A stretch of 64,000 nucleotides of DNA from Candidatus Poribacteria bacterium (GCA_965197475.1 CBDANF010000003.1:3008001-3072000); one strand, 5' to 3'; counted from the stretch's first letter, positions 8,703-26,786 are shown. Translations and numbers: made by a program. Notes: generated by a model from the letters alone, not told the origin.

Positions 8703-11099
8703 TTACGAATGCAAAGGTGTTTGCCATGCGGATTTGAGGTTATCTATTGAAGTATCCACAATTCGCTTGCCTGTTAATCCATTGATGACAAATTCTGGTG
8801 TTTCTGTAACGGTGCCTAAACAACCAAGTGGCACTTCAGCCATGTGATTTTCAAAAGCATCTTGGAGTTGTTGTTCAATTTCAACAATAAAACGGCTATT
8901 TGATTCTGAAAATAACAGAAAATCGTCAAAAGGAATTTCTGCTCCGGTCGGGACGTTGTCAAGATTTAATGACATGCCGTAACCACCCGAAAATGCCATT
9001 TCCGCTGCTGCAACACCGATACCGCCTTCAGAACAATCATGACAGGAACGCACCAAACCACTATTGATCGCAGCACTGAGTGTTTCCATAGTCAACTTTC
9101 CCTCACTCGGACGCACAATAGGCGCGGTGTTACCGATAAAATCGTGGATATCAAAGTAGTGAGAACCGCCTAATTCAGCATAGGTATTTCCAACAACATA
9201 AATCAGATTACGAGGGGATTTCACATCCATAGTAACTGCTTTACGAATATCCGGCAGGACACAGATTGCTGAAATGAGCAACGTCGAAGGAATTGCACGT
9301 TGCTCACCGGTTGTTGTATCACGGTATTCATTGTAAAGGCTATCTTTCCCAGAGATGAACGGTGTCCCGTAAGCAGTTGCAATGTCATAACATGCCTTCG
9401 CCGCACGCACTAACGCACCAAGCCGATCCGGTTTATCAGGGTTTCCCCAACAGAAATTATCCAGCAAAGCCGTCTTTTCAAGTGTTCCGCCGACAGCGAC
9501 TATGTTTCGGAGTGCCTCATCAATTGCCGATGCCGCACTGAGATACGCATCAACATCGCTGTATTTTGGGTTAATACCGTTCGCAACAATGACTGCCTTC
9601 CGATTTCCTAAGACTGGTGTCGCAACGCACGCATCGCTCGGTCCGTCGTTTTTGACTCCAACGAGAGGTTTGACAACTATACCCCCTTGCACCTCGTGAT
9701 CATACTGACGGATAACAGATTCTTTGCTTGCTATATTTGGACTTGCAAGGAGTTTACAAAGGTCTTCTGTATAGGATTCGGTTTGTCTATCTCGCGACGG
9801 CATTTCAGGGTGTTGTGGCGGTTGCCAAACAGCTTTTTTGACATGTTGCGGCAAGCCTTTATGCAGAAATTCCATATCCAAATCCGCTACCACTGCACCT
9901 TCATAAAAAACCTGCAACCTGTGAGTATCTGTGAAACTGCCAAGGACGGTTGCCTCAACCATTTCTGCTTCACAAATTTCCATCAGTTCCTGCAGATTTT
10001 CAGGTGGCACAGCGATTACCATCCGTTCTTGTGCTTCCGACAACCAGATTTCCCACGGTTCCAATCCCTCGTATTTTAGAGGGACCCGTTCCAGATGAAC
10101 CTCTGCGCCTGTGTCTTCTCCCATTTCACCCACAGCAGATGAGAACCCACCTGCACCGCAGTCAGTTATAGAACGGTACAGGTTTCGATCGCGTGCCTGT
10201 AACAGTGCATCAACTATCTTCTTCTCCATAATGGGGTTGCCGATTTGAACAACACTGCCGAGGTTTTCTGAAGTATCGTCCAATTCTGCCGAGGAGAAGG
10301 TCGCACCGTGAATTCCATCGCGACCAGTGCGACCACCAAGCGCAACAACAAGATCACCGGGTTCAACAGATTTATCACATCTGTCTCTTGGTATCAAACC
10401 GACGTTTCCACAAAAGACGAGGGGGTTTGCAGTATAACGTGTGTCAAAAAGAATAGCACCGTTTGCGGTAGGAATTCCCATCCGGTTACCGTAGTCGCGA
10501 ACACCAGCAACGACACCCTTCAACACGCGTTTAGGGTGGAGTGTCCCCTTCGGCAACTTCTCATAAGGTGTATCCGGCATACCGAAACAGAAAACATCTG
10601 TATTCAGAATCGGTTTTGCCCCCAGTCCAGTGCCGAGTGAGTCTCGGATAACGCCACCAATACCGGTGCCTGCTCCGCCATAAGGTTCAATCGCTGATGG
10701 ATGATTGTGCGTTTCCACCTTAAATACAAGATTGAAATTTTCATCAAATTCAATAATGCCCGCATTGTCTGAAAAAACGGAGACACACCAAGGTTTGTCG
10801 ATCTCCTCAGTTGCGCGTTGAATATAGGTTGGAAACAAACCATCAATTCGCTCCGTTTCCTTGCCCTCTTCAGAGTAAAGAATCATGCTTTTAAAGGTTT
10901 TGTGAACGCAATGCTCCGACCACGTTTGCGCAATAGTCTCAAGCTCTACATCGGTTGGATTGCGTTGCAGTGCTGCAAAATGGGTCTGAATAGTCTGCAT
11001 CTCGTTTAGATTTAGGGACAACGTGCCTTCTTGACTGATACGCATCAATTCAGTATCATCTGCATTCAAAATTTTAAATTCATTAACCTTATTGGACAT
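8703..11099 (-). CDS. purL: Phosphoribosylformylglycinamidine synthase II
   Basis: WSEHCVHK, KVETHNHPSAIEPYGGAGTG, GRDGIHGA, DCGAGG, SEAQERM, QYDHEV; likely start ATG 11099 after GGAGA. Confidence 0.95.
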   Translation of the reverse strand: MSNKVNEFKILNADDTELMRISQEGTLSLNLNEMQTIQTHFAALQRNPTDVELETIAQTWSEHCVHKTFKSMILYSEEGKETERIDGLFPTYIQRATEEIDKPWCVSVFSDNAGIIEFDENFNLVFKVETHNHPSAIEPYGGAGTGIGGVIRDSLGTGLGAKPILNTDVFCFGMPDTPYEKLPKGTLHPKRVLKGVVAGVRDYGNRMGIPTANGAILFDTRYTANPLVFCGNVGLIPRDRCDKSVEPGDLVVALGGRTGRDGIHGATFSSAELDDTSENLGSVVQIGNPIMEKKIVDALLQARDRNLYRSITDCGAGGFSSAVGEMGEDTGAEVHLERVPLKYEGLEPWEIWLSEAQERMVIAVPPENLQELMEICEAEMVEATVLGSFTDTHRLQVFYEGAVVADLDMEFLHKGLPQHVKKAVWQPPQHPEMPSRDRQTESYTEDLCKLLASPNIASKESVIRQYDHEVQGGIVVKPLVGVKNDGPSDACVATPVLGNRKAVIVANGINPKYSDVDAYLSAASAIDEALRNIVAVGGTLEKTALLDNFCWGNPDKPDRLGALVRAAKACYDIATAYGTPFISGKDSLYNEYRDTTTGEQRAIPSTLLISAICVLPDIRKAVTMDVKSPRNLIYVVGNTYAELGGSHYFDIHDFIGNTAPIVRPSEGKLTMETLSAAINSGLVRSCHDCSEGGIGVAAAEMAFSGGYGMSLNLDNVPTGAEIPFDDFLLFSESNSRFIVEIEQQLQDAFENHMAEVPLGCLGTVTETPEFVINGLTGKRIVDTSIDNLKSAWQTPLHS

Positions 11100-11249
11100 T
11101 ACTTTCTCCGTTATTTCCAAAGTTAAGCCACAGCCAAGCTGCAATGTTGGACACATCCAGAAGCGAAGCTAAAACGCAAGGATAGACCGGGACCTGCTAA
11201 AGAAAGATTTCGCTGCTTGATAAATCCACGTGTCGTTTTTGTCTCTGTT

Positions 11250-11501
11250 TTATTCTGAGTGTTCGTTATGGTTTTCATCTTCGGCGAGTGCATCAACTTC
11301 TGTCCGAAGTTCCTCAGGCGTTTGGGTAGTGGCGGCTTTCTCAAAGAGCATTTCAAGCCGGTTGCGGTCATCAAGTCTGCGAATCGTTTCAGCAAGTGGT
11401 TCTGACACATTGTGAAATCGGAGTTGTACGAGTTTGAGAATATATTCGCGTTTGGTTCGCGTTTCGCCTTGTTGTAAGTAATGTTCAGCCATGCTCTGCA
11501 T
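11250..11501 (-). CDS. Small C-terminal Rpn ORF (RpnS-like, 83 aa)
   Basis: Internal AAGGAG 9 nt upstream of ATG (MQSMAEHY...), open to the stop at 11250. Confidence 0.5.
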   Translation of the reverse strand: MQSMAEHYLQQGETRTKREYILKLVQLRFHNVSEPLAETIRRLDDRNRLEMLFEKAATTQTPEELRTEVDALAEDENHNEHSE

Positions 11502-11680
11502 GAGTTGTTTCTCCTTCTCTGAGATGTCCAAAAACGGATGGTTTTCAGAAACTATTTGATCTAACACCGGCCGCTCATCAATCGGACGTCTGTGTTTTCT
11601 AATAACCATTTCGCGCTTCGGTCCGGAAACTGTTCGACACGTGTTTTTAAAGCCTCGAGTAGATCGTTGATGTCTAACAT
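11250..11680 (-). pseudogene. Internally deleted Rpn/YhgA-like (PD-(D/E)XK) gene: N-terminal ~30 codons joined out of frame to the C-terminal domain
   Basis: From ATG 11680: MLDINDLLEALKTRVEQFPDRSAKWLLEN, then frame switch to HRRP...MQSMAEHYLQQGETRTKREYILKLVQLRF...LEMLFEKAAT (DUF4351/Rpn C-terminus-like); nuclease core absent. Confidence 0.6.
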
Positions 11681-11815
11681 AGTGATATTTTACTAATTTC
11701 CTCCCTTTCCGCGCTGGTGTTTCCTTTTTTATATTATACGGTTTCTCGCTTGTTTTCTCAAGTTTTTTGTGTTAGAGTTACCACTTTGTCCGGAATATAA
11801 ACACAACCAATAACC

Positions 11816-12043
11816 TTACGTTTCAGTTATCTCAGCAGGCAGATTATCAATAATCCGAGCAGATTCCACACTCACATAAACAATATGCTTAATTGCCGCA
11901 ACCAAATCGCGCGGACCGGCAAACCAACCGTTTGGGTCGTTGACGATGCCGCTGTCCTTATATGTTTTATATAGTCCCGAACAATTAACTATCTCAGAGC
12001 GATGTGCATCTTCTGGAATATCTGAATTTAAGTGTGCCATCAT
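11816..12043 (-). pseudogene. Displaced, diverged copy of the Type ISP RM gene 3' end
   Basis: SDIPEDAHR..IVN...KDSGIVNDPNGWFAGPRDLVAAI..I..VSVES.RII.NLPAEITET aligns with the C-terminus of 13007-17830. Confidence 0.85.
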
Positions 12044-12999
12044 ATCTCGACCCGATAGGCCATTTGTTCTTTCAGATGCCATAAGAGTGCCCTCACACCG
12101 TCAACAGTGGTTTCGGCTTCCATTAGTTCGGGGAGATTGTTGACGGTGCACTCAGGGTCATCCATTGGTGCCGTGATATAATGCATAACTTGTATGGGTG
12201 TCCAATATGGGAAATCACCGTAAATCGTATGTTCTATTTCATCAGAAAACCAATCACTTTGTCGAATTTCTACCATTTCAGCGAGATTGCTCTGTATTCC
12301 GAAATCCATCAGCGAGATGACGTGTAATTGTTGATTGCCATTGCGCGTTTGGTCATATTGTGTTTGGTATTCGTATACTTGATCAAGGAGTTCTTTGGCT
12401 TTCTGGTTCCAAGGGTGATTGTTAAGTAATAAATGAATAGGTTTACAAGTATACGAAAGACCTTCTAACGTTTGTTTTTCATTCACGTGTGCCGGTGGAT
12501 GGGTCGGAAAAAGTGCTAATTGTTGGCTGTCTTTCTCGTACTGAACTGATTCTAACAATTTTTGCCAGTGTTCACACTGAGTCGCAATGTCTTCCAATAC
12601 TTTGTCTTTTTCGGTTTCTTCCATCTCATGCACGGCATAATAATTTCCCCAGTTACTGCAGAAATCCATGAAATCTTTCAATGTAAATTGTTGAATTTCA
12701 GATATTTCGTATCGTTTTTTCATCCAATCTAAGTATGAATCGGGTTTAGGAAGGAGCACGAGCAATTGATAGAGTTTATCCAGAAGGTTAATGTCTATAA
12801 GGTAAAAAGCATCATTTTTCTCTTCATTTTCAAGTTCGGAAAATAATTCTCTTATTGAGTTATTGCGCGATAATTTGTATGGGTGGAGTGTAAGGAGTGC
12901 CTCAAGGCGTTCTATTGGTTCGCGAAGCGCGTCAAGTTCTTTCCTAAACTCTTTTTTCCATTCTTCATGTGTCATATCTACTTCCTTCATTATCTGCAT
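12040..12999 (-). CDS. Hypothetical protein (cargo between the Type ISP gene and its displaced 3' end)
   Basis: 319-aa ORF starting 7 bp after the ISP stop; no family recognised. Confidence 0.7.
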   Translation of the reverse strand: MQIMKEVDMTHEEWKKEFRKELDALREPIERLEALLTLHPYKLSRNNSIRELFSELENEEKNDAFYLIDINLLDKLYQLLVLLPKPDSYLDWMKKRYEISEIQQFTLKDFMDFCSNWGNYYAVHEMEETEKDKVLEDIATQCEHWQKLLESVQYEKDSQQLALFPTHPPAHVNEKQTLEGLSYTCKPIHLLLNNHPWNQKAKELLDQVYEYQTQYDQTRNGNQQLHVISLMDFGIQSNLAEMVEIRQSDWFSDEIEHTIYGDFPYWTPIQVMHYITAPMDDPECTVNNLPELMEAETTVDGVRALLWHLKEQMAYRVEI

Positions 13000-16000: not shown

Positions 16001-17830
16001 AATTGCGACCGGCAATATGATGTATCCATACGCTTTATTGGGTGCTTTTCGCATTACACGCCCGACTGCCTGAACAATGTCAACGTGTGAGTTTCTCGGT
16101 GTCATGAAAAGCACAGCATCAAGCGCGGGAACGTCAATACCTTCAGAGAGGCATCTCGCATTAGAGAGAATACGGCAAACGCCTTCAGAATCGCCTTTTA
16201 GCCATTCAATTAGCTTTTTTCGTTCAAGTGCGTTATTTTTACCATCAACGTGTGCGGTTTCGCATGTGAAATTTTGTGGACGTTGATCTTCTGGTACCTT
16301 TTCAATAGCAGTTTCTATGATGCCGTTCCAATGTTCAACAAGGTTTTCTGACGACTTGATGGTGTTTGTGAATGCGATGGCGCGGGTGAGCGGTGTGATA
16401 GAATCGTCGTTTGGTGATTTTCTTTCGGGGTTCTGTAGTGCGCGCCAACATCCCACTATCTTTGTCGCGTCGTTAATGTTAACCTCACTGCCGCCATTAC
16501 TGAGATAGTTGTGTAGCGTATCTTGCACACCTTGTTCGGACATGGCGAGCACTACAACCTTATAGTCGGAGAGTAGGTCTTGTTCTACTGCTTTGGAGAA
16601 GGGGAGTCGGTGAAATTCGGGACCGTATATGTTCGGATCGTCCATAGAATACACGTCAATATCGTGTTTTGCTGCTTTTGTTTTCGCACTTTCAGTATAA
16701 AGACGAGGTGTCGCAGTCATATAGAGGCGTTTTTTAGCACGGATACGATCATTATCATGGACAAGTACAAAAGGCGATGTATCATCATCAAGTCTATCAA
16801 CACCAGTGGTTCTGTGTCCTTCATCGCAAAAGATAATATCAAAAGCGGGGACACCAGTGTTCTGTGCTTCTTCCACTTTAGGCAGTGAATGATAGGTGCA
16901 GAAAACAACTCTCATATTACCTTCATCGCTTTTTTGTAGTGCTTCAGAGATAACGGTTTCATCAGTGGTAACAGGGAATTCCAATTCCATGAGGGTAGCG
17001 TCTTCGTTCGCTTTTCCTGCTTTTGTATCGGAGCATATACCGATGTAGCGATGTGAAATTTTCTGCTGTTCTGCCCATTCACGCATTGCCTGTGCAAAAA
17101 GTCCGATGGAAGGGACAAGATATAATACCCTGCCGCCGACACCAGCAATCTTTTCAGCGATTCGGAGTGCGGTGAAGGTTTTCCCTGTGCCGCATGCCAT
17201 AATCATTTTACCGCGGTCGGATTCTTGAAAACCTTTGGTAACATCGTCAAACGCTGCTTTCTGATGTTCCCGCAGACTGAACGTTTCCAGTTGATAGTTT
17301 AGTTGGTCTGGTTCTTGTAGGCTGAGGTCGGGCCACTGAACGGGTCGACTTGCGAGGTCTGCTGCACTGATCCGTTGGCATGGGGGTTCTAATCCATCAA
17401 TGGCTTTTAGTAGGTTTTTACTCCAGCTTTTCCCAGTATCAACAAAAATACGTGCTGTAAAGGGTTGACGATTAGATTGTGAAATGAACGTATCAATATC
17501 GGATTTTGATACCCGTTTGTCTTCTGCATAGCACTTGCACTGGATAGCACAAATACCATTATTACGTTCTATTGCGACAAGGTCAATGCCTAAATCAGTA
17601 CGAGTGAACCCTGGTTGGTTCGCCGCCCATTCTGCCCATAGATACACTTCCGAAAACCGCTTTTTATAGAAAGGGTCTTCAAGGAGATATGCTCTTACTA
17701 ATCGTTCGAATAGTCTGCCTTTTCCAAATTGTGTGTTGGCGTTTTGACAGATGTAATTAAGCGCGTCATAGAATCCGTTGTCTGACTCTTCGTTTCCGAT
17801 GAATAAGGACATCTGTCTTGCATCTGACAT
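13007..17830 (-). CDS. Type ISP restriction-modification enzyme (Mrr-like nuclease, SF2 helicase, N6-adenine MTase, TRD; LlaGI/LlaBIII-like)
   Basis: GIDLVA...IQCKCY nuclease; MACGTGKT, DEGHRT, TATPR, QAVGRVMRK helicase; LDPFTGTG and GNPPW MTase; LRGNQRT and IVNDPN conserved blocks. Confidence 0.92.
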   Translation of the reverse strand: MSDARQMSLFIGNEESDNGFYDALNYICQNANTQFGKGRLFERLVRAYLLEDPFYKKRFSEVYLWAEWAANQPGFTRTDLGIDLVAIERNNGICAIQCKCYAEDKRVSKSDIDTFISQSNRQPFTARIFVDTGKSWSKNLLKAIDGLEPPCQRISAADLASRPVQWPDLSLQEPDQLNYQLETFSLREHQKAAFDDVTKGFQESDRGKMIMACGTGKTFTALRIAEKIAGVGGRVLYLVPSIGLFAQAMREWAEQQKISHRYIGICSDTKAGKANEDATLMELEFPVTTDETVISEALQKSDEGNMRVVFCTYHSLPKVEEAQNTGVPAFDIIFCDEGHRTTGVDRLDDDTSPFVLVHDNDRIRAKKRLYMTATPRLYTESAKTKAAKHDIDVYSMDDPNIYGPEFHRLPFSKAVEQDLLSDYKVVVLAMSEQGVQDTLHNYLSNGGSEVNINDATKIVGCWRALQNPERKSPNDDSITPLTRAIAFTNTIKSSENLVEHWNGIIETAIEKVPEDQRPQNFTCETAHVDGKNNALERKKLIEWLKGDSEGVCRILSNARCLSEGIDVPALDAVLFMTPRNSHVDIVQAVGRVMRKAPNKAYGYIILPVAIPTGVDPVEALNDNERFAAVWGVLRALRSHDDRLNAEINKIDLNTEPTEIIIIEEENGDGEYREGTLDPEQLTLPIGIPADAIFAKIVEKCGDRRYWESWAKDVADIFKRLVGRIENLLEDPENNALQEWFDDFHSELTETINDSITRESAIDMMAQHIITRPVFEALFENYDFASGNPVANALNKLQNDFGEFGLENETRDLEGFYESVQNRARGLDNSEARQRVLLELYEKFFVTALKKEVERLGIVYTPVEVVDFILHSANEVLQDEFGRGLTDEGVHVLDPFTGTGIFLTRLLQSDIIQDVDLERKYREELHANEIVLLAYYIATVNIEETFRGRRGEDSTYEPFNGIVLADTFNLNKKEDEPTLFPKEWLPDNSTRAERQQKLPIQVIVGNPPWSIGQRRSTDDNPNVEYIDLEERIKETYLVYATTTNKRSLYDTYKMAIRWASDRIGEQGIIAFVTNGSWIDSNTDAGIRACLVEEFSSIHILHLRGNQRTQGERSRQEGGKIFGSGSRAPVGISILVKNPNATHEGCKIQYRDIGDYLTRQKKLEELREVESISGFTDWDTITPDKHNDWIDQRNEAFANFYPMGSEDTKKGKADNAIFRLYVRGLETTRDAYIYNFTKDTCAEIALRMTQDYLAARSDMSDNSDLTADEAAQRQSSNIKWSDELINRMTRIETEFNVNYIRNVAYRPFVTTNCYADHTFISRAYQMNQMFPESTSENLVICTPGKGSKKDFSTLMVDTMPDLGFNEATRCFPRYQYPKPSDTPDASESLLDVDDTPDRIDNISDTALKAFQKHYRTDKITKDEIFYYVYGILHAPSYREQFANDLSKMLPRIPYAPDFTAFADAGYKLAEFHLNYETCEQYPLRVEFPNMSSSPTDLEDADPNLFLLTEKAMRYGPDMKRQLDINTNVRLSGIPEDAYRYIVNGRSPLEWFIDRYYIKTDKDSGIVNDPNGWFADPRDLVTAIARIIHISVQSTRIINNLPAEITTTET

Positions 17831-17868
17831 ATAGGTTTCCTGTTTTCAAAAAATTGTGTTAACGATCT

Positions 17869-17982
17869 TCATTCCTTAAACGAAGCAGTAACCCGTGGAA
17901 TACTCTCCTCACAGGCAAACCGTTCGATGCTGGATGCACCAACAAACCCAACGGTATCTGTATTCTCATTGATATATGCAGC
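17869..17982 (-). repeat. Direct repeat copy 3 of the last 114 bp of the TIM-barrel gene (24549-24662)
   Basis: 9/114 mismatches to the gene by eye (7 synonymous, 2 non-synonymous); includes the stop codon. Confidence 0.95.
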
Positions 17983-18007
17983 AACCATTTTAGGCGTTAT
18001 TTCTCCG

Positions 18008-20851
18008 TTATTTCGTGTTTATATCCGCATCAATGCCGACGAACATACTCCATTTACCACCGCCCTGACTAACTTTAACCAGCAAAAGGTTATCTCCTGC
18101 CTTCAAACCAACCTTGAAGCTATCCTGAAAGTTTTCTGCACCACGGTTCACAGCTTTTTTATACACTACTTTACCGTTGAGCCACACCTTGATAGCGTCA
18201 TCACTTCCAGCAAACATCCTCACGTCAGACTGATCTGTATCAGATTTAAGAGTAATGAGTGCATAAGCGGAATGGTCTTTCAAGTAAAAATCATCTGCTT
18301 TAGTTCTTCTATTCTTGCCGCGAACGAAATCGATTCTATTGACAACTTCATTGACATTATTATCGCTGGTGTCAGAAATCTTTGCCCGCGTCCAAACATA
18401 ATCACCTGCGACATCGCCTGCTTTCGCTCCGTTTTCTGCCACGGTGTTTTCAGTCACAACGCCTTTACTAATGGTAGCCAGTGAATCGCTGTCAATGGAA
18501 TTTGCACCGCCTTGTCCGGGTTCAGTTGGCGCGATCATCCAGAGCCACGGACCAGCAATTTTGTCCACGTTGTAGATGAGGTGCCACATATTATGACGGA
18601 TATTAGGGCTCTTTTCAAGTAGTACTCGAATAGGGGAAAAATCTTCAATCGGATTTTGAGTTATAGATAATTCCCTTAAGTTTGTCATCTCTGCAAGCGG
18701 TTTAATATCTGTGATTTGGTTTCTATCAATCTTTAAAACACGCAAATTCTGCATTTTTGCGAGCGGACGAATGTCATGAATCTGATTCTTACGGAGATTT
18801 AAATTTGTTAAATTCGTTGCGTGTTCAATACCAGTAAGGTCGGTTATACCTTGATCACTGACATCAAAATTTCCGTGCGTATTAAGTCCGACTAAGTTTA
18901 GCATATCCAATTGCGTAATGGCAGATTCTGGAGACAATTTCAAAGCTTTGCGCACCGCAGCCGCTAAATTGGCATCCGGTATTGAGATTGCTTTAGGTGG
19001 TGGCAGCAGAGAAGTCATGGTGATTGGAAACTTCTGTACGGTAAAATATCCATGCTTATCTATGACTCGAAGCCGTACAGAAGTCGCCTTAGGTGTTAAC
19101 CGCGTTGTGACGAATTCAACCGTGCTTTTTTCACCGTTCAAGGCTTTAAAATCCTGCAATTTTGAGAAAGGAGATTTATGAGATTCGGCGATAAGGAATT
19201 GTACCTGATGGAGTCCATCGGGGTCAGTTATGTCAAATTGGAAACGTATACCGTTAGCCTCATCTTCGCGTGTTGGGGTAGCCATCTGAATTGTCGTGGG
19301 TTGGTTGAGGCCAGTTATGTGAGAATTGAAATAGCGATGTACATTCAACCACTGTGCGGCACAGAAAGATGTCGACATCGGTTCAGTTGAATATAAATCT
19401 ATCCACGGTTTCAAATTGTTGCGATAGTCGTGTGATAATCCAAACGCATGTCCGAGTTCGTGGACGGTCACATCACTTTCATCAAAGCAGTAACCTGAAG
19501 CGGGGATGACTACTGTTCCGCCAAAATCACCGCGGTGTTCGCCAAATCCGCATGCGAAACCATCAAGGAGTTCTATGCTACTATCTAAAGCAGCAAGATA
19601 GATGTTGTCATAGGTATCGAACTGTTTATCAATTTCATCCCATATCTTCATGGACTTTTTTTGATAATATTTATCTGGGAACTTGCCTTTTACATGATGT
19701 ACGACCACATTTCCAGAAGGATCAGTTTCAAACTTAAAGGTTTTCCTACCGAATCCGTGGTATTCCATCTGTGAGGCGAAAATTTGCTGTACCTTCTTTA
19801 TTAATTTATCTAACTTTGCATCTATATCAGGTTGAGGGGAGCGGTCACTTGGGATGAAGTAGATTAAGCGGACAGTATTTGGTTCGCTTTGTGATTTTTT
19901 ACTTTCCATGATCTTCTGGACACGGAGTGTTCCATCATCAAGACCGCTACTTGCGATGGTGGTTCCGTCCAGTGAGAAGGCTGCTTCCATAACCCAACCG
20001 GTGTATCCTGTAATTGCAGTGATTTTTTTACCGTTTTCAACAGACCAAATGCTTACTTCTGCATAACTAGCACTGGCGAGACTCTTACCGTCCGGCGAAA
20101 AGGCGAGATCGAATACCGAAGTAACCTGTTTAATGCTACCGACTACTTTCCAATTTGACACCGACCATAGTTTGATATTCCCTTCCCTACCTGCACCGGC
20201 AAAGGTTTGACTATCTGGTGAAAAGGCAATAGCATCGATCCAGATTTTATCACATTCCAACCGGGCAATAACTTGTCGTTTCTCAACATCCCAAATTTTT
20301 ATATGTTTTCCATCTACGGCGGCGAGAAGTTGCCCATTCGGTGAAAAAACGACTGCAAGCACCCAGTCATCATGTTTAAATGTTCCGATCTCATTATGGT
20401 TATCAACATCCCATAATTTCACACTAATGTATCCTGCACTCGCGAGGGTGTGTCCATCAGGTGAAAATGCTAAAGAAGTGATATTTGATGGTCCAAAACC
20501 ACCGAAACTATGTTTTAACGTGGCAATATTTTGTTTACGATGGACATCCCAAAGCTTCAAGACACGGTCATCGCTACCACTCGCGAGTAATTTTCCATCC
20601 GGAGAGAATGCTACAGTATTAACTTTGTCCGTATGTCCAGTAAGGGTTGTTGAGGTGTTATCCTGTAAATTCCATATTTTAACGGTGTGGTCATCACTGG
20701 CACTGGCAACAAGCGAGGCATCCACAGGTGAGTATTCGACCGCTTGGATAGAACCACCATGTTTAAGAACTGTGGGTTGCTGTGCCAAACCAGAGAAACA
20801 AAAATTCAATAAGAGCGCAAAAAGAACAAGTAAAAACTTATTTGATTGCAT
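18008..20851 (-). CDS. Secreted WD40-repeat, zinc-metallopeptidase-motif, LRR, C-terminal beta-sandwich protein (paralog A)
   Basis: Signal peptide; GHTDKVNTVAFSPDG..LASGS...KLWD repeats; HELGHAFGLSH; internalin-like LRRs (LNLRKNQIHDIRPL); DDAIKVWLNG C-domain. Confidence 0.85.
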   Translation of the reverse strand: MQSNKFLLVLFALLLNFCFSGLAQQPTVLKHGGSIQAVEYSPVDASLVASASDDHTVKIWNLQDNTSTTLTGHTDKVNTVAFSPDGKLLASGSDDRVLKLWDVHRKQNIATLKHSFGGFGPSNITSLAFSPDGHTLASAGYISVKLWDVDNHNEIGTFKHDDWVLAVVFSPNGQLLAAVDGKHIKIWDVEKRQVIARLECDKIWIDAIAFSPDSQTFAGAGREGNIKLWSVSNWKVVGSIKQVTSVFDLAFSPDGKSLASASYAEVSIWSVENGKKITAITGYTGWVMEAAFSLDGTTIASSGLDDGTLRVQKIMESKKSQSEPNTVRLIYFIPSDRSPQPDIDAKLDKLIKKVQQIFASQMEYHGFGRKTFKFETDPSGNVVVHHVKGKFPDKYYQKKSMKIWDEIDKQFDTYDNIYLAALDSSIELLDGFACGFGEHRGDFGGTVVIPASGYCFDESDVTVHELGHAFGLSHDYRNNLKPWIDLYSTEPMSTSFCAAQWLNVHRYFNSHITGLNQPTTIQMATPTREDEANGIRFQFDITDPDGLHQVQFLIAESHKSPFSKLQDFKALNGEKSTVEFVTTRLTPKATSVRLRVIDKHGYFTVQKFPITMTSLLPPPKAISIPDANLAAAVRKALKLSPESAITQLDMLNLVGLNTHGNFDVSDQGITDLTGIEHATNLTNLNLRKNQIHDIRPLAKMQNLRVLKIDRNQITDIKPLAEMTNLRELSITQNPIEDFSPIRVLLEKSPNIRHNMWHLIYNVDKIAGPWLWMIAPTEPGQGGANSIDSDSLATISKGVVTENTVAENGAKAGDVAGDYVWTRAKISDTSDNNVNEVVNRIDFVRGKNRRTKADDFYLKDHSAYALITLKSDTDQSDVRMFAGSDDAIKVWLNGKVVYKKAVNRGAENFQDSFKVGLKAGDNLLLVKVSQGGGKWSMFVGIDADINTK

Positions 20852-20876
20852 GTGGAAGTCTCCTTTTATTAATAGC

Positions 20877-20994
20877 AAGACTTACGCAAATTTAGACTCC
20901 TTGGCGAAATTGATCGTAAATCACCGAAGAACGCGAAATGAATTGCACGACTACATATCAAATAACGCTTAAAAGAGCAACCTGCGTAAGTTTT
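20877..20994. mobile_element. MITE-like element with ACTTACGCA...TGCGTAAGT terminal inverted repeats
   Basis: aagacttacgca ... tgcgtaagtttt flanking about 95 bp of non-coding DNA. Confidence 0.55.
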
Positions 20995-21198
20995 ATAATA
21001 TTTTCAAAAAATCAAATATAAGACTCATGCATATTGAAAAGGATTGAAAATTCCCATTTGTCGCCGGCAGGTAATCACTCAATAAATCGCATCAATACAT
21101 TATATCAGCAATTTTTCATTAATATACACTTGTCTTAATCAGATTATTATACCCATTGAGATATTCTATGTCAACTAAAAAATTAAATTAATAATTTC

Positions 21199-21313
21199 AG
21201 GTCTTACACAAATTGAGCAGAGAAGGACATATTTTATGCAAAAAGTCGTTATTTTGGCGTTTTTAACCCCTAAATTCCTTATCATGGGACTTTTGAACTT
21301 ATTGCGTAGTCCT
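21199..21313. mobile_element. Second, degenerate MITE-like element of the same TIR family
   Basis: aggtcttacaca ... tgcgtagtcct, similar length to the 20877 element. Confidence 0.45.
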
Positions 21314-21358
21314 AAATAGGTGAAAATCTTTGTTGCAGCAAAGCTAAATTATGAAATT

Positions 21359-21472
21359 TCATACCTTAAACGAAGCCGTAACCCGCGGAATACTCTCCTC
21401 ACAAGCAAACCGTTCGATGCTGGATGCCCCTACAAACCCTATGGCATCAGTATTCTCATTGATAAATGCAGC
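21359..21472 (-). repeat. Direct repeat copy 2 of the last 114 bp of the TIM-barrel gene
   Basis: 2/114 mismatches to 24549-24662; preceded by a 25-bp linker carrying GGAGA and an in-frame ATG (possible 42-aa ORF 21359-21487). Confidence 0.95.
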
Positions 21473-21497
21473 AACCATTTTAGGCATTATTTCTCCG

Positions 21498-24335
21498 TTA
21501 TTTTGTGGTTACATCCGCATCAATGCCGACGAACATACTCCACTTACCACCGACCTGACTAACTTTAACCAGCAAAAGGTTATCTCCTGCTTTCAAATCA
21601 ACCTTGAAGCTATCCTGAAAGTTTTCTGCACCACGGTTCACAGCTTTTTTATACACCACTTTACCGTTGAGCCACACCTTGATAGCATCATCGCTACCGA
21701 CAAACATCCTCACATCAGATTGATCAATAGTCGACTTTAGTGTGATGAGTGCGTAAGCGGAGTGATCTTTCACGTAAACATCTCTTGCTGCAATTATTGG
21801 ATCACTTCCAGTTTTGAAACCGATTTTTTTGACAAGTTCATTGAGATTATTATCGCTGGTGCCCCTAATCTTTGCTCGCCTCCAAACATTATTACCAACG
21901 ACATCGCCTTCTTTAACACCTTTTACCGCAACGGTTTTTTCAGTCACAACGCCTTTACTAACGGTAGAAAGTGAGTCAACATCAATGGAATTTGCGCCGC
22001 CTTGCCCGGGTTCTGTTGGCGCGATCATCCAGAGCCACGGACCGGTAATTTTTTCCACCGAGTAGATAAGGTGCCACACATCATGTTGAATATTTGGTGC
22101 TTTTTCAAGTAGCGCGCGGAGGGACAACATATTTTCGACTGGATTTTGAATGAGCGATAATTCTCTTAAGTTTGTCATTGCTGTGAGCGGTTTAATATCT
22201 GTGATTTGATTTCTATCAATCTTTAAAACACGCAAATTCTTTAATTTTGAGAGCAGACTAATGTCGCGGATCTTATTCTTACTGAGAATTAAACCTGTTA
22301 AATTCGTCGCGTGTTCAATACCGGTAAGATCGGTTATCTGATGTTCGCTGACATCAAAACTACCGAATGGATTAAGTCCGAATAAGTTAAGCATATCCAA
22401 TTGCGTGATAGGATCTTCTGACGATAGACCGACTGCTTTGCGTACCGCAGCCGCTAAATTAGCATCAGGTATTGTCACAACTTTAGGAGGGGGTAGCAGA
22501 GGAGTCATCGTTATCGGAAACTTCTTTTCGGTATAATATCCGCGTTTATCAATTACTCGAAACGTCACCGATGATGTCTTTGGTGTCAATTGTGTTGTGA
22601 CAAATCCAACAACGTCTTTCTGACCATTCATTGCTTTAAAATCTTGTAATTTTGAGAAAGGAGATTTATGAGATTCGGGTATGAGAAATTGTGCCTGATG
22701 GAGTCCATCGGAGTCAGTTACGTTAAATTGGAAACGGACGCTATTGCTTTCACCAACACGAGTTGGGGTTTCCATTTGAATTGTCGTCGGTTGATTGAAG
22801 TCGGCTTTGGAAGTGTTGAAGTAGCGATGCACATCCAACCACTGTGCGGCACAGAGAGATGTCGTCATAGGTTCATTTGAATATAAATCTACCCAAGCCT
22901 TCAAATTGTTACGATAATCGTGTGCCAATCCAAAAGCATGTCCGAGTTCGTGCACGGTCACATCACTTTCATAAAAACAGTACCCCGAAGCGGGGATGAG
23001 TACTGTTCCCCCAAAATCACCACGGGGGCCGCCGAACCCGCATGCATAACCATCAAGGAGTTCTATGCTACTATCTAAAGCAGCGAGATAGATATTGTTA
23101 TACGTGTCAAACTGTTTATCAATTTCGTCCCAGACCTTTCCAGACTTTTTTTGATAATATTTATCTTTGAACTTACCTTTCACATGATGTACAACCGCTT
23201 TACCAGCTGGATCAGTTTCAAACTTAAAAGTCTTTCTACCAAACCCGTGGTGTTCCATCTGTGAAGCGAAAATATTCTGGACGTTCTTTATTAATTTATC
23301 TAACTTTTCATCTATATCTGGTTGTGGAGAACGGTCATTTGGGATGAAGTAGATTAAGCGTACCGTGTTTGGTTTACCTTGTGATTTTTTTTGTTTCGTA
23401 ATCTTCTGTACGTAGAGTGTTCCATCCTCAAGACCTCCACTTACAATGGTATTTCCGTCAGGTGAAAAGGCAGCTTCCATAACCCAGCCGGTGTGATCTG
23501 AGAATGAAGTGAACCTTTTACCATTTTCAACAGACCAAACGCTTACTGCAGGACCAGCACTAACGATGCTCTTTCCATCAGGTGAAAAAGCAAGGTCCGA
23601 TACCGATGAACTCTCTTTTATGTTACCTATGACTTTCCAATTCGACACCGACCATAATTTGATTTTACCTTCCGACCCACCACTGGCAAAGGTTTGGCTA
23701 TCAGGAGAAAAGGCTATGGCACCGATCCAGTTTGCATCGCCTTCCAGTTGAGTGATAATTTGTCGTTTCTTAACATCCCAAATCTTCATCCGTTTTCCAT
23801 CTACGACGGCAAGGTGTTTTCCATTCGGAGAAAAAATTACTGCATGTACCCAGTCATCATGTTTAAGGGTTGCCGTCTCTACCCAACCGTCAACATCCCA
23901 AAACTTAACACTTTGATACCCCGCACTTGCAAGCATCTCCCCATCAGGGGAAAAAGCTACAGAAATGATTTGTGATGGTCCAGACCGAGAAGGCGTATGT
24001 TTTAACGTAGTGATGTGTTGTTTTCGCTGGACATCCCAGATTTTTATTGCACGGTCATTGCCACCACTCGCTAACAATTTTCCATCCGGTGAAAACGTTA
24101 CAGAATTGACCTTGTCTGTATGTCCTGTGAGAGTGGTTGAGGTATTATCCTGCAAATTCCATAGTTTAATAGTTTGGGAATCACTGGCACTGGTAACCAG
24201 AGAAGTATCCACGGGCGAGAATTCAATTGATTGAATAGAACCACCATGTTTCAAGACTGTAGGTTGCTGAGCAAAACCAGAGATACAAAAAATCAATAGG
24301 AGTCCGATAGTAATAAATGGAAATCTGAATTGCAT
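21498..24335 (-). CDS. Secreted WD40-repeat, zinc-metallopeptidase-motif, LRR, C-terminal beta-sandwich protein (paralog B)
   Basis: Same architecture as 18008-20851 and colinear with it; HELGHAFGLAH. Confidence 0.85.
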   Translation of the reverse strand: MQFRFPFITIGLLLIFCISGFAQQPTVLKHGGSIQSIEFSPVDTSLVTSASDSQTIKLWNLQDNTSTTLTGHTDKVNSVTFSPDGKLLASGGNDRAIKIWDVQRKQHITTLKHTPSRSGPSQIISVAFSPDGEMLASAGYQSVKFWDVDGWVETATLKHDDWVHAVIFSPNGKHLAVVDGKRMKIWDVKKRQIITQLEGDANWIGAIAFSPDSQTFASGGSEGKIKLWSVSNWKVIGNIKESSSVSDLAFSPDGKSIVSAGPAVSVWSVENGKRFTSFSDHTGWVMEAAFSPDGNTIVSGGLEDGTLYVQKITKQKKSQGKPNTVRLIYFIPNDRSPQPDIDEKLDKLIKNVQNIFASQMEHHGFGRKTFKFETDPAGKAVVHHVKGKFKDKYYQKKSGKVWDEIDKQFDTYNNIYLAALDSSIELLDGYACGFGGPRGDFGGTVLIPASGYCFYESDVTVHELGHAFGLAHDYRNNLKAWVDLYSNEPMTTSLCAAQWLDVHRYFNTSKADFNQPTTIQMETPTRVGESNSVRFQFNVTDSDGLHQAQFLIPESHKSPFSKLQDFKAMNGQKDVVGFVTTQLTPKTSSVTFRVIDKRGYYTEKKFPITMTPLLPPPKVVTIPDANLAAAVRKAVGLSSEDPITQLDMLNLFGLNPFGSFDVSEHQITDLTGIEHATNLTGLILSKNKIRDISLLSKLKNLRVLKIDRNQITDIKPLTAMTNLRELSLIQNPVENMLSLRALLEKAPNIQHDVWHLIYSVEKITGPWLWMIAPTEPGQGGANSIDVDSLSTVSKGVVTEKTVAVKGVKEGDVVGNNVWRRAKIRGTSDNNLNELVKKIGFKTGSDPIIAARDVYVKDHSAYALITLKSTIDQSDVRMFVGSDDAIKVWLNGKVVYKKAVNRGAENFQDSFKVDLKAGDNLLLVKVSQVGGKWSMFVGIDADVTTK

Positions 24336-24349
24336 GTTGAAGTTCCTTT

Positions 24350-24508
24350 TATAGTAGATTTTAGAATTACTTGGACATTGTTATCGGTCCAGTTGGGAAA
24401 CAGTTCCTACCGCATATTTTGTAGCACAAACTTTTAGTTTGTGTCGTCCTTGCGCAAACTGAAAGTGGACGCTACAGCAGTGTCCAGATAATTACAGATT
24501 TTACTATA
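24350..24508. mobile_element. MITE-like element with about 27-bp imperfect terminal inverted repeats and an internal GTAG...CTAC hairpin
   Basis: atagtagattttagaattacttggaca versus tgtccagataattacagattttactat; internal gtagcacaaac..gtttgtg...gctac. Confidence 0.55.
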
Positions 24509-24548
24509 ATAGATTGAAAATCATGCTGTAATTTATATCATCCGATTT

Positions 24549-25370
24549 TCATTCCTTAAACGAAGCCGTAACCCGCGGAATACTCTCCTCACAAGCAAAC
24601 CGTTCGATGCTGGATGCCCCTACAAACCCTACGGCATCAGTATTCTCATTGATAAATGCAGCCTCCGGTGCTTTTGAGATAGGACCACCGTGTGACAAGC
24701 AGATCACATCAGGATTCTGTGCCTTCGCAGCATCACAAATTTCTTGCACTCGGACTGCTGCGTCTTTGAGTGTAAAAGCGGTTTCAGCACCAATTGTGCC
24801 ACCAATCGTAGTACCCATGTGTGCAATAATAACGTCCGCGCCGACCTTTGCCATATTCTCAGATTCTTCGGGGTTAAAGACATAGACGATGGTAAACAGA
24901 TCCATCTCATGTGCGATGCCGATTGTCTCAACCTCTTTATAGAACCCCATTCCTGTTTCTTCAAGGGTCACCCGAAAAGTGCCATCAATCACGCCAACGG
25001 TAGGAAAGTTATTGACACCATCAAAACCTACATCCCGAATCTGCTTAAGAAAGTTACTCATTCTTCGTGTAGGATCGGTACCGTTCACGCCAGCGATTAC
25101 CGGTGTTTCCTTCACAACAGGTAAAACTTCTCGTTCACCCATTTCCATCACGATGGCGTTTGCATCACCGTACGCCAAAAGCCCAGCGCATGATCCAAAC
25201 CCTGACATCCTGTAGCGACCAGAGTTGTAAATCACAATCAGATCCGCGCCACCTTTTTCCGCAAATTTCGCAGTGATACCTGTTCCTGCACCGACAGCAA
25301 GCAAGGATTTACCTTTATCTAACTCCGATTTGAGTCGATCTAACACCTCATCTCGTGTATAATCTGGCAT
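24549..25370 (-). CDS. Phosphoenolpyruvate hydrolase family / TIM-barrel signal transduction (Tm-1-like) protein
   Basis: GAGTGITAKFAEKGGADLIVIYNSGRYRM, NFPTVG, HGGPI, GFVGASSIER. Confidence 0.88.
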   Translation of the reverse strand: MPDYTRDEVLDRLKSELDKGKSLLAVGAGTGITAKFAEKGGADLIVIYNSGRYRMSGFGSCAGLLAYGDANAIVMEMGEREVLPVVKETPVIAGVNGTDPTRRMSNFLKQIRDVGFDGVNNFPTVGVIDGTFRVTLEETGMGFYKEVETIGIAHEMDLFTIVYVFNPEESENMAKVGADVIIAHMGTTIGGTIGAETAFTLKDAAVRVQEICDAAKAQNPDVICLSHGGPISKAPEAAFINENTDAVGFVGASSIERFACEESIPRVTASFKE

Positions 25371-25391
25371 ATAGTTTTCCTTTCTTAATCG

Positions 25392-26786
25392 TTATTCATC
25401 CCGTGATTTTGCTTGTAAACGCGCTGCCTCACCTGGATTTCCGATGTGCATCGTATTATACGCCTGCTCGGATGACTTAAAGGGACCGACACCTTTGTGA
25501 CCATGCCAATCGCCTTGATTCATAATCGGGTTTGACAGTCCAGTTTCCTTCTCACGCTGAAGTATCCAGTTCTTCATCCGCGTTTCCAGAACGTTGACAA
25601 TGTCAGGATGTGTCTCAACAAGATTGTTATTCTCATCTGGGTCTTGGATGAGGTTGTAGAGTTCGACAGGCGGCTTGTAATGGAAATCGGGTTCAAGTGC
25701 TACAATCAGTTTCCATTCTGGTGTCCGCCATCCGTGCTTACGCATCCACGTACATTCTGTGATATAAAACTCGCTATCATAAGATGCAATCTCCCCACTA
25801 ATTAGAGACGTGAGGCTTTTACCATCAAATGCGATGTCTGTTTCAATATCTGCTAACTCAAGAAGTGTCGGCACAAGGTCTTTGTGTTGGTTGTATCCAG
25901 AGACACGCTTTCCAGCAGGCACACGACCCGGATATCGGATGATGAGCGGCACATGCAGCGTTACATCGTAGATTCCGTGATGGTCAAACCAGCATTCGTG
26001 ATCATAGAGGGTTTCACCGTGGTCACCATTGATAATAACGATAGTTTCGTCCAGCACACCGCGTGTTTCAAGTGCATTAAAAAGCGTCTGAATACAAGCA
26101 TCCATATATGCAACTGCACCATCATACTGCGCTATGACATAATCTTTATCTGTAATACCCACCGGCATCCATGAAGCAAAGTAATCGCAAAACGGTTTGA
26201 ATGACATCACAGGTTCCATAGATTTGTTGCTCGGATCACACGCATCGCCGTGGTAGAACATCCGTTCATAAGGAGCAGGAGGCAGATAAGGCGAATGTGG
26301 ATCCATGTGTCGCAGGAACAGGAAAAACGGCTTTTCATCACTTTGATCGATTAACCGATTCAACTCAGGAAGAGTCGTTTTATTTAGGTTTTCTGCTTTG
26401 GGACTCCGTCCTGTATCATCAGGTCCCCATCCTGAGAATTCGAGATAAGTATCAAAACCACGCGCACTCGGTCCACCGAATCCAACACACGTAGTATCAT
26501 ACCCAGCGTCCTTCAGAATTTCCGCCAACGTTTTAACCTCTTCGCGGAGCGGTCCTTGGTGTCGAAGTGCTACGACTTGCGTGCTAAAGGTGTCCATACC
26601 TGTGAGCATAGATGCATACGCACTCGTTGTTGGGACATGGGGACTATAAGTTTTCTCAAAAAGAGTCCCTCCTTCCGCAAACCTATCAATGTGTGGTGTT
26701 GTCTGTTGATAATACCCATAACAACTCATGTGTGTAGCGAGAAGGGAATCAACCCCCATCAGGACGATATTTGGTTGTTTTGCCAT
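25392..26786 (-). CDS. Sulfatase-like / alkaline phosphatase superfamily hydrolase
   Basis: PNIVLMGVDSL, DPHSPY, YDGAVAYMD, GDHGE, HVPLIIRYP, ELYNLIQDPDE; lacks the canonical CxPxR. Confidence 0.85.
   Translation of the reverse strand: MAKQPNIVLMGVDSLLATHMSCYGYYQQTTPHIDRFAEGGTLFEKTYSPHVPTTSAYASMLTGMDTFSTQVVALRHQGPLREEVKTLAEILKDAGYDTTCVGFGGPSARGFDTYLEFSGWGPDDTGRSPKAENLNKTTLPELNRLIDQSDEKPFFLFLRHMDPHSPYLPPAPYERMFYHGDACDPSNKSMEPVMSFKPFCDYFASWMPVGITDKDYVIAQYDGAVAYMDACIQTLFNALETRGVLDETIVIINGDHGETLYDHECWFDHHGIYDVTLHVPLIIRYPGRVPAGKRVSGYNQHKDLVPTLLELADIETDIAFDGKSLTSLISGEIASYDSEFYITECTWMRKHGWRTPEWKLIVALEPDFHYKPPVELYNLIQDPDENNNLVETHPDIVNVLETRMKNWILQREKETGLSNPIMNQGDWHGHKGVGPFKSSEQAYNTMHIGNPGEAARLQAKSRDE

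Follow-up and report, generated by a model that had tools for sequence, protein, structure and literature searches.

The tandem array at the 3′ end of a PEP-hydrolase-like gene in this Candidatus Poribacteria genome most probably represents the scar of one illegitimate (non-homologous) join within the interval between that gene and purL, which was then reworked by ordinary homologous recombination; we put the probability of this reading at about 0.8. The window analyzed is a stretch of 64,000 nucleotides, to the whole of which all positions refer; G000 denotes the genome under study, and G001 and so forth denote its relatives in the genus. On the minus strand, the terminal 114 bp of the PEP-hydrolase-like gene are present three times in direct orientation (R1, R2, and R3), and the paralogous genes W_B and W_A sit between the copies (Table 1). 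An earlier note on this DNA had proposed an undescribed cassette-accretion system, served by a recombinase acting in trans or driven by homology. A homology-driven process fits our results, but a dedicated cassette system does not, the 25-bp linker that precedes each extra copy being made up of the purL ribosome-binding site and purL codons 1-5.

Table 1. Features of the array and its surroundings, listed in the direction of transcription
Feature	Coordinates	Strand	Basis or remarks
PEP-hydrolase-like TIM-barrel gene, intact, 273 aa	24549..25370	-	PF09370, E 8.6e-115, full length
R1, end of the intact gene	24549-24662	-	
Spacer IG1, R1 to W_B	24336..24548	-	remnants of the short ancestral G013/G014 spacer plus inserted sequence
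W_B, 945 aa, predicted secreted WD40 propeller with metzincin-type zinc protease motif, LRR, and C-terminal domain	21498..24335	-	Pfam WD40, LRR
Joint stub J_B, purL leader (GGAG) and purL codons 1-5, in-frame fusion to R2	21473..21497	-	21/25 nt as in the G016 W-to-purL spacer (manual count on printed sequences); also G000 purL start
R2, PEP-hydrolase codons 237-273 and stop, apparently dead copy	21359..21472	-	98% identity to R1
Spacer IG2	20852..21358	-	12/12 sigma-70-like promoter at 21146-21174; MITE-like repeat at about 21240-21315
W_A, W_B paralogue, 947 aa from ATG 20851 or 956 aa from TTG 20878	18008..20851 (ORF 18008-20878)	-	Pfam, alignment
Joint stub J_A, purL leader and codons 1-5, first ATG mutated to ACG	17983..18007	-	sequence comparison
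R3, probable displaced former gene end	17869..17982	-	differs from R1 at 9 positions; consensus peptide, private changes absent
Type ISP restriction-modification enzyme, 1607 aa	13007..17830	-	Pfam Mrr_cat_2, ResIII, ISP_coupler, N6_Mtase, Type_ISP_C
ORF, 319 aa, without Pfam match	12040-12999	-	within 11100..12999
940-bp mosaic spacer upstream of purL	within 11100..12999	-	parts recur beside purL 5′ stubs in G013, G002, G054, and G049
purL (FGAM synthase), right-hand core gene	8703..11099	-	Pfam; true start ATG 11099 (MSNKVNEF...)

The origin of the linker is apparent from relatives with a simpler arrangement. In G016, G051, and G053, the W stop codon is followed by the same 25-nt spacer and then directly by purL, the purL start lying 10-12 nt past the W stop; the sequence reads TAA-CGGAG..ATG CC. 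A.. AAG GT. and runs on into purL. The same string is present in both units of G000 and in G021 and G044, but there PEP-hydrolase codon 237 comes after GGTT. The two near-identical linkers previously reported for G000 were confirmed (J_B and J_A); the G016 counterpart of J_B occupies the identical place, right after the W stop, and the purL start and leader are conserved among the genus genomes whose fetched stretch included purL. Because the linker is the purL start, the unit is a plain piece of the chromosome, bounded by PEP-hydrolase codon 237 and purL codon 5 and with W in between; successive units follow one another head to tail through one illegitimate joint that fuses purL codon 5 to PEP-hydrolase codon 237. 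At this joint (GGTT/GCTGCA), shared bases amount to 1-2 nt at most, and the anchors at hand are PEP-hydrolase or purL.

The breakpoint at gene nt 709 and a derived AAG>ATG change are common to the four extra copies, which occur in 3 of the 40 genus species (G000, G021, and G044). All four copies have ATGGTT, and the full-length purL starts listed have AAG, AAT, AAA, AAC, ACG, CAG, or AGA at that codon. Among 185,579 species genomes scanned for this pattern, only two records contained the joint, both Candidatus Poribacteria MAGs (apparently G021 and G044). On these comparisons, the joint evidently arose once in the genus and has a single origin. It stands beside W genes of three lineages and in three distinct downstream contexts.

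The repeats themselves are as first described: alignment confirmed three copies of the gene end, every extra copy beginning at codon 237 and ending at the stop. Relative to the gene end, R2 has two changes in 114 positions (V>I and E>V, neither synonymous), and R3 has nine (two non-synonymous, F>Y and A>T, and seven synonymous); in the repeat family alignment, R3 is 90% identical to R2, the family reference, and R2 is 98% identical to the gene end. A 161-nt query searched against the whole 5.7-Mb G000 genome matched these three places only (E-values of 2e-79, 2e-53, and 3e-52). All eight private changes in the extra copies, including the two in R2, are non-synonymous, compared with 73 of 465 changes in functional alleles, and the extra copies are therefore taken to be dead relics.

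R3 encodes the genus consensus peptide and has no private change. Its 148 nt of downstream sequence match, at 96% identity, those that follow the intact gene in G006, and the Type ISP gene starts 38 bp past R3, an arrangement shared with the intact gene of G006 and G024. The same downstream sequence and Type ISP gene support the view that R3 is the displaced former gene end, and the earlier suggestion that the distal copy is the older end thus stands. The companion claim, that the two proximal ends were brought in by cassettes, was not supported: R1 is not detectably foreign, and the alleles most like it, with 7 and 9 differences, belong respectively to G020 and G003, which the left flank also places nearest to G000. 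The base at position 57 is C in all three G000 copies and does not occur in the other 39 alleles; this G000-specific base shows concerted evolution, which can explain the young look of R2. The short patch of similarity that follows the stop of the gene and of R2, and not that of R3, is real and is the remainder of the short PEP-hydrolase-to-W spacer of G013 and G014, remnants of which are retained in both IG1 and IG2.

The PEP-hydrolase orthologue has the same left neighbours (PhyH and sulfatase) in all 40 genus genomes. Judging from its contents across the genus, the interval between this gene and purL is clearly a recombination hot spot. It measures only 60-190 bp in G018, G012, and G042 and contains W in 11 of the 40 genomes, in eight of which (G014, G010, G050, G051, G053, G055, G013, and G016) the order is PEP-hydrolase, W, purL with no repeat after W. 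The number of units varies among relatives (0, 1, or 2) and is no fixed two-gene layout. A Type ISP gene is found in the interval of G006, G024, and G000, and a partial ISP-like gene, 55% identical, in G044; other contents include CRISPR-Cas genes (G003 and G020), DDE transposases (G022 and G001), and, elsewhere, a methylase and repeat proteins. W is absent from G003 and G020, the closest species to G000. Stubs of the purL 5′ end (codons 1-56 or 1-31) are present in G013 (two), G049, G002, and G054. Past the last gene-end stub, the G021 sequence matches G008 and G022 at 83% and the G044 sequence matches G017 and G049 at 71%, that is, what trails the intact gene in species without W. In G000, R3, the Type ISP gene, the 319-aa ORF, and a spacer lie between the second joint and purL; the last unit does not run into intact purL.

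The W_B translation contains the HELGHAFGLAHD motif and a signal-peptide-like N-terminus. W_A and W_B share 75% protein identity and 79.8% nucleotide identity (dS of 0.65, dN/dS of 0.23), and the dS of the neighbouring gene between G000 and G014 is 0.71; the last 300 nt of the two units are 93% identical, compared with about 80% elsewhere. In the best tree, W_A groups with the W of G021 (support 86/90), and a topology with W_A and W_B as sisters survives the AU test (p-AU of 0.067). Grouping of the G021 W with the W of its left-flank sisters G051 and G053 was rejected (p-AU of 1e-41), a tree conflict that supports exchange of W between species. The earlier observation that R2 resembles the gene end far more than W_A resembles W_B was correct. 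The conclusion drawn from it, successive arrival of units rather than an old duplication, is not established: the W genes may be sisters, and concerted evolution can explain the young R2.

The array most probably formed as follows. The starting layout would have been PEP-hydrolase, W, purL, which survives in relatives. A single event within the genus then fused purL codon 5 to PEP-hydrolase codon 237, possibly through head-to-tail duplication of the whole unit, roughly 3.1 kb long, or possibly through uptake of a relative's DNA that was homologous at only one end (homology-facilitated illegitimate recombination). The product is PEP-hydrolase, W, the purL stub with the 114-bp gene-end stub, other content, and purL. 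The primary product of a simple tandem duplication, with the last W leading straight into purL after the joint, is found in no genome compared, so the duplication route needs an extra replacement step. The 114-bp stub is a dead relic whose length still permits RecA-type recombination with the real gene end; in G000, such recombination, whether by unequal crossover or through insertion of an R-W circle that had looped out, would have taken the units from one to two, and gene conversion would hold the copies alike. Growth from one to two units via homologous recombination between the 114-bp stubs is the most likely course. A difficulty is that R2 is 98% identical to R1, yet the dS of the W genes is 0.65: an old duplication would need gene conversion confined to 114 bp, and a recent addition would need a donor with the same R allele.

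For the W pair, and within the illegitimate-join reading, an old in-place tandem duplication that diverged while gene conversion kept R1 and R2 alike is a tentative option that we place somewhat short of even odds, the alternative being later addition of an already diverged W allele via the 114-bp stub. Survival of the W_A and W_B clade in the AU test, the closeness of the W dS to that of the neighbouring gene, the conversion implied by the G000-specific base in all three R copies, and the elevated identity of the final 300 nt of the units agree with the old duplication. The best tree, however, pairs W_A with the G021 W, and, with W lacking in G003 and G020, the whole array would have been lost there. 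Moreover, in the public contigs of one run, W_B-like genes have a depth of about 2400 and W_A-like genes of about 100, and the W_B-like genes there are followed by a spacer that, on a by-eye reading, is like the reverse complement of the G014 spacer; the depth gap and the differing spacer hint at separate carriers of W_A-like and W_B-like genes.

Single-gene cassettes without an integrase, added successively by a site-specific recombinase in trans with the 114-bp repeat as the attachment site (CIME- or integron-like), would account for the different unit numbers among species, and the R-W-R-W-R order, in which the repeats share one left boundary, looks like the tandem accretion at gene 3′ ends described in a review (PMC5704250). 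The joint seen with three W lineages and in three contexts is a difficulty for the illegitimate-join reading because a site-specific process would give this pattern too. Nevertheless, we consider such cassettes very unlikely. Every repeat is preceded on its left by the first part of the adjacent purL gene and not by an element arm, the joint is confined to one locus in the three species, and W has no repeat after it in 8 of the 11 W-bearing genomes; the repeat boundary was rejected as an attachment site, the boundary being the single illegitimate joint. As the earlier note had it, no recombinase lies in or near the units: none was found in a Pfam scan of 24 ORFs covering 560-42936, which stops short of 21 further ORFs of 150 aa or longer, and whole-genome family searches placed none inside the window. 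The scan for unlinked recombinases that it advised gave a sole tyrosine recombinase (Phage_integrase, PF00589; C3:2069666), about 0.96 Mb from the locus, and zero matches to serine recombinases (Resolvase, PF00239) in the G000 genome, which is 92.7% complete and so leaves room for a missing recombinase. There was no integrase or resolvase among 38 ORFs scanned from this interval in seven other species, no inverted repeat of at least 30 nt, and no attC-like hairpin (folding z-scores of -0.5, -1.1, +0.3, and +0.6 for joint and repeat).

The extra copies could alternatively be functional, with the purL ribosome-binding site and start driving a 40-43-aa peptide of the enzyme C-terminus, or with a regulatory or spacer role. 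The purL stub is in frame with the repeat, and the ATG (of ATGGTT) and the stop are kept in 4 of 4 copies with zero indels; the exclusively non-synonymous private changes, loss of the first ATG in 2 of the 4 copies, and lack of an Rfam match or stable fold make a function highly improbable. A false duplication is conceivable in a metagenome-type assembly with 7% contamination, given that the public short-read contigs break at the repeats. Such an artefact appears exceedingly improbable: the units are only 80% identical and hence not a collapsed or doubled repeat, contigs in runs X7 and X8 (runs which may represent the source sample) bridge the W_A start, IG2, and R2 (20839-21415) with 0-1 differences, a contig of run X10, which belongs to a different study, connects the ISP gene with R3, and the same joint is present in G044 and in G021, a one-contig genome.

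Among known arrangements, the array resembles tandem or segmental duplication scars (RecA amplification, concerted evolution) in its head-to-tail units, a joint that links unit end to unit start, truncated gene pieces at the joint, copy number changeable by repeat recombination, conversion that keeps repeats alike, and units collinear with the single-copy layout in relatives. Unlike such scars, the copies here are old, the last unit ends in other hot-spot content instead of W-purL, and the joint is present in three species, through spread or survival. Integron cassette arrays also stack single-gene units in one orientation, but here there are no intI, attI, or attC hairpins, and the repeats are coding sequence of a neighbouring gene. 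Accretion of mobile elements at a gene 3′ end is reportedly exemplified by ICESt1 at fda. Where integrative elements and CIMEs accrete in tandem at a target gene's 3′ end, as treated in the review (PMC5704250), direct repeats of the gene end flank and separate stacked units that have no integrase of their own; the present array differs in having no att structure, matching integrase, or element arms and in the chromosomal purL start as the left neighbour of the repeat. Vibrio cholerae T6SS orphan immunity-gene arrays and Rhs C-terminal displacement, attributed to homology-facilitated illegitimate recombination in PMC5361080, are likewise integrase-free; there, as would apply here under the uptake route, homology in a conserved gene anchors the new DNA while its opposite end is illegitimate, the former gene end is shifted downstream and kept, and the array can lengthen by repetition. 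In contrast to that account, the cargo here is a complete unrelated gene rather than a toxin tip with an immunity gene, what has been displaced is the end of a gene for a metabolic enzyme, the R stubs trace to a single illegitimate joint, and the lineage is uncultivated.

More speculatively, the 114-bp stubs and the mirror-image purL 5′ stubs might serve as portable homology arms that turn a replace-only hot spot into a stacking locus, where RecA alone would add a stub and W circle, or DNA of a relative, before the resident unit. We regard this as rather unlikely; if true, it would mean integrase-free collecting of diverged secreted WD40-metzincin-LRR host-interaction genes by sponge symbionts.

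Under the illegitimate-join reading, a candidate new mobile-cassette system is removed: the array is a commonplace scar of duplication and recombination, located where this sponge-symbiont genome is variable. The look of site-specific accretion can come from one illegitimate joint plus homologous recombination, and reading the sequence just inside each repeat and comparing relatives with the simple arrangement is a reusable test. In these sponge symbionts, one core-gene interval appears to swap defence systems (Type ISP and CRISPR-Cas) and secreted eukaryote-like repeat proteins between species; the W gene moves across species boundaries, and stubs of the two flanking genes pile up at the locus.

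The three copies of the last 114 bp of the PEP-hydrolase-like gene (R1 within the intact gene and the extra copies R2 and R3, of which R3 is distal) have no further counterpart in the 5.7-Mb genome under study (G000). The earlier note described the feature accurately: it is real, and the mismatch counts given for the 114-bp copies were confirmed by recounting. In three relatives from the same genus (G016, G051, and G053), the stop codon of the W gene (the orthologue of the paralogous secreted WD40-metzincin-LRR genes W_B and W_A) is directly followed by CGGAG, a few bases, and the start of purL (MP[NI]KVNEF...). In both units of G000, each consisting of one W gene, a joint, and a gene-end stub, and in the relatives G021 and G044, this string likewise comes after the W stop codon, and ATG CCT AAA ATG GTT then runs into GCT GCA, which is codon 237 of the PEP-hydrolase gene, instead of continuing into purL. 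The 25-bp linker is thus the purL leader with purL codons 1-5, and the repeat unit is a plain copy of the chromosomal stretch that begins at PEP-hydrolase codon 237 and ends at codon 5 of purL.

Layout of the locus in G000 and contents of the corresponding interval in other genomes of the genus
Feature	Genome (locus)	Position	Strand	Remark
PhyH-type dioxygenase	G000	26830-27651	minus	first in minus-strand order
Sulfatase	G000	25392-26786	minus	
PEP-hydrolase-like TIM-barrel gene, intact	G000	24549-25370	minus	PF09370
W_B	G000	21498-24335	minus	
25-bp linker, then R2 (copy of the last 114 bp of the PEP-hydrolase gene)	G000	R2 21359-21472	minus	
Spacer, R2 to W_A	G000		minus	507 bp
W_A	G000	18008-20851	minus	alternatively from 20878
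Same 25-bp linker, then R3	G000	R3 17869-17982	minus	
Type ISP restriction-modification gene	G000	13007-17830	minus	38 bp beyond R3
Unknown ORF	G000	12040-12999	minus	
Spacer, unknown ORF to purL	G000			940 bp
purL	G000	8703-11099	minus	
purQ	G000	7851-8660	minus	after purL
purL next	G018, G012, G042			60-190 bp after PEP-hydrolase gene
W orthologue next	G000, G021, G014, G010, G044, G050, G051, G053, G055, G013, G016			11 of 40 genomes
Type ISP gene directly next	G006, G024			
CRISPR-Cas genes (Csc2, Cas6, Cas4-Cas1 fusion)	G003 (L036), G020 (L037)			downstream of PEP-hydrolase gene
DDE transposases next	G022, G001			
DNA methylase; cadherin/LRR, TPR, fn3, or HEAT proteins	other genomes			
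purL 5' stubs, codons 1-56 (two)	G013 (L066)	6672-6839, 8177-8344		upstream of intact purL
purL 5' stub, codons 1-56 (one)	G049 (L058)	8130-8297		upstream of intact purL
purL 5' stub, codons 1-31	G002 (L048)	14634-14726		upstream of intact purL
purL 5' stub, codons 1-31	G054 (L059)	8314-8406		upstream of intact purL

Several other features of the window were noted. The longest purL ORF begins at 11156, and the ATG at 11099 is the start that is conserved (MSNKVNEF, with a GGAG leader); judging from this conservation, the called ORF probably includes 19 extra codons. The spacer upstream of W_A contains, about 270 nt from the gene, a 12/12 match to a sigma-70-type promoter (TTGACA, 17 nt, TATAAT; 21146-21174, minus strand), the sole such site within 17700-25500. 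An element of about 80 nt (about 21240-21315), which looks like a MITE, recurs in either orientation in the spacer following the PEP-hydrolase gene in G044, G055, G004, and G023 (79-80% identity). An Rfam search of 7000-29000 with E-values up to 0.1 matched no family. The minus-strand ORF at 4756-6477 encodes a UvrD-type helicase, with a GIY-YIG nuclease domain match within the N-terminal helicase region (aa 133-206).

All four extra gene-end copies start at nt 709 of the PEP-hydrolase gene, and each of the four joints has ATGGTT; at the codon occupied by this ATG, the full-length purL starts compared have AAG, AAT, AAA, AAC, ACG, CAG, or AGA. Only three of the 40 species-level genomes of the genus carry an extra gene-end copy. 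An exact-pattern scan of one genome per species (185,579 species) recovered the joint in two records, taken as G021 and G044, and a pattern scan of the JGI metagenome contig collection returned 0 matches. The shared breakpoint and the shared ATG codon show that the joint has a single origin. Genome G012, which has a full PEP-hydrolase gene, also carries a partial second copy (aa 155-273, 96% identity; L055, contig C42, 3215-3571) at the end of a 3.6-kb contig; this copy could reflect variation among strains or a different organization of the locus.

An assembly artefact was considered and is out for practical purposes, given the bridging read contigs, units that share 80% identity, and the recurrence of the joint in G021 and G044. 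The public reads were available as short-read contigs only, which break at the repeats of this locus; read joints with sides of up to 32 letters inside WD40 repeats were excluded, and uncovered parts were left uninterpreted. Five of the 12 public runs for the stretch are labelled sponge metagenome, all with small shares. Contigs from two runs (X7 and X8), possibly derived from the source sample, bridge the start of W_A, the spacer before it, and R2 (20839-21415) with 0-1 differences, and a contig from another study (X10), 95% identical, links the Type ISP gene to R3. At the loose ends at 18009 and 21499, W genes of other strains continue into sequence unlike the joint; by eye, this continuation looks like the G014 spacer in reverse complement.

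As the earlier note stated, the locus itself encodes no integrase. The Phage_integrase family has one match in G000 (C3:2069666-2070181), about 0.96 Mb away, and the Resolvase family has none in this genome (completeness, 92.7%); neither was detected among the ORFs scanned from the interval in seven other species. The region contains no inverted repeats of at least 30 nt, and the joint with the repeat folds no better than shuffled sequence on both strands (z = -0.5, -1.1, +0.3, and +0.6). A scan of G000 for gene 3' ends copied 0.3-20 kb away, a check proposed in the earlier note, yielded no family of similar duplications and no hint of a system acting across the genome under a megablast filter (at least 85% identity, 50-400 nt) that old copies would escape; the nine flagged pairs comprise two from this locus, three from a single region of a repetitive gene family (C2:1455-1463 kb), and four others. 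Perfect (100%) direct repeats on contig C3, namely, 91 nt 12.2 kb apart (1135188-1135278 and 1147428-1147518, one copy ending a long ORF), 165 nt 10.7 kb apart (2466065-2466229 and 2476772-2476936), and 124 nt 2.0 kb apart (836950-837073 and 838971-839094), could flank inserted elements. With the linker being the purL start and no site-specific machinery found, the proposed new cassette-accretion system is not supported, but the homology-driven variant of that proposal may hold.

The extra gene ends are relics, as their substitutions show. States absent from all 40 functional alleles number two in R2, four in the G021 copy, two in the G044 copy, and zero in R3, and all eight are non-synonymous, compared with 73 of the 465 differences from consensus among functional alleles. 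The R3 peptide is the consensus peptide, and the 148 nt following R3 share 96% identity with the stretch behind the intact gene of G006, in which the Type ISP gene likewise comes next. The post-stub sequence of G021 resembles the post-gene sequence of G008 and G022 (83%), and that of G044 weakly matches G017 and G049 (71%). The distal stub is thus the former end of the gene, now displaced, which agrees with the earlier note; the 114-bp allele network is too short for naming the R3 donor. The companion idea that the proximal end arrived with a cassette is not supported: the alleles nearest to R1 are those of G020 (7 differences) and G003 (9 differences), the species that the left flank places nearest to G000, and R1 itself shows no sign of import. 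At position 57, R1, R2, and R3 all carry a synonymous C that none of the other 39 alleles has, which shows gene conversion among the copies.

W_A and W_B each encode a signal-peptide-like N-terminus, a WD40 propeller, a HELGHAFGLAHD motif, LRRs, and a C-terminal domain also found in other G000 proteins. The motif fits HExxHxxGxxH, the metzincin pattern; the Pfam peptidase matches are under the cut-offs. A third, more distant relative is encoded at 45444-47951 on the plus strand (43% identity over aa 1-608, the propeller and protease-like part), and a search of G000 with W_B gave 327 matches in all. W_A and W_B share 79.8% DNA identity (dS 0.65), and their dN/dS of 0.23 indicates that both are under purifying selection. 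For the PEP-hydrolase gene, dS is 0.71 between G000 and G014, close to the W_A-W_B value, and 0.42 between G000 and G003 or G020, below that value. The units could stem from an old in-place duplication, with R2 converted by R1, or from later addition of a diverged allele via recombination in the stub. In the W tree, W_A, W_B, the G021 gene, and the G014/G013 pair form a star-like group with weak support, and a W_A-W_B clade is not rejected (p-AU = 0.067). Similarity between the units is highest at the 3' ends (93% over the last 300 nt, joint and stub included), and insertions have reworked the spacers before W_B and W_A too much for their comparison to date the units.

One illegitimate joint formed by either of two routes. 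The segment may have been duplicated head-to-tail, after which other hot-spot content would have replaced the interior of the last unit, the stub and purL serving as homology arms. Alternatively, in homology-facilitated illegitimate recombination, a fragment from a relative would have found its anchor in one core gene, its other end being joined without homology; this route needs one step fewer and would yield the G021 and G044 layout directly. For orphan immunity arrays of T6SS and displacement of Rhs C-termini, models built on the same logic have been published (PMC5361080). Site-specific tandem accretion involving CIMEs (PMC5704250) looks much the same, but the features that define it are not seen at this locus.

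The block of PhyH, sulfatase, and PEP-hydrolase genes is present in all 40 species-level genomes, and the content beyond it varies (see the table; described for genomes with purL inside the fetched stretch, and, for the CRISPR-Cas, DDE, and other-content groups, based on Pfam assignments for 38 of 71 non-nested ORFs from seven genomes, 85 before nesting was removed). The purL 5' stubs of G013, G049, G002, and G054 mirror the gene-end stubs of the window, and each is followed by a mosaic spacer of about 1 kb, parts of which recur in G000 in front of purL. The left flank makes G021 a sister of G051 and G053, but its W gene does not group with theirs, and constraining these W genes to group lowers the log-likelihood by 382 units (p-AU = 1e-41). 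These comparisons show a locus that recombines. In the two closest species, G003 and G020, CRISPR-Cas genes occupy the place that in G000 is taken by the W genes and the Type ISP enzyme, and the interval between the PEP-hydrolase gene and purL acts as a defence and variable island.
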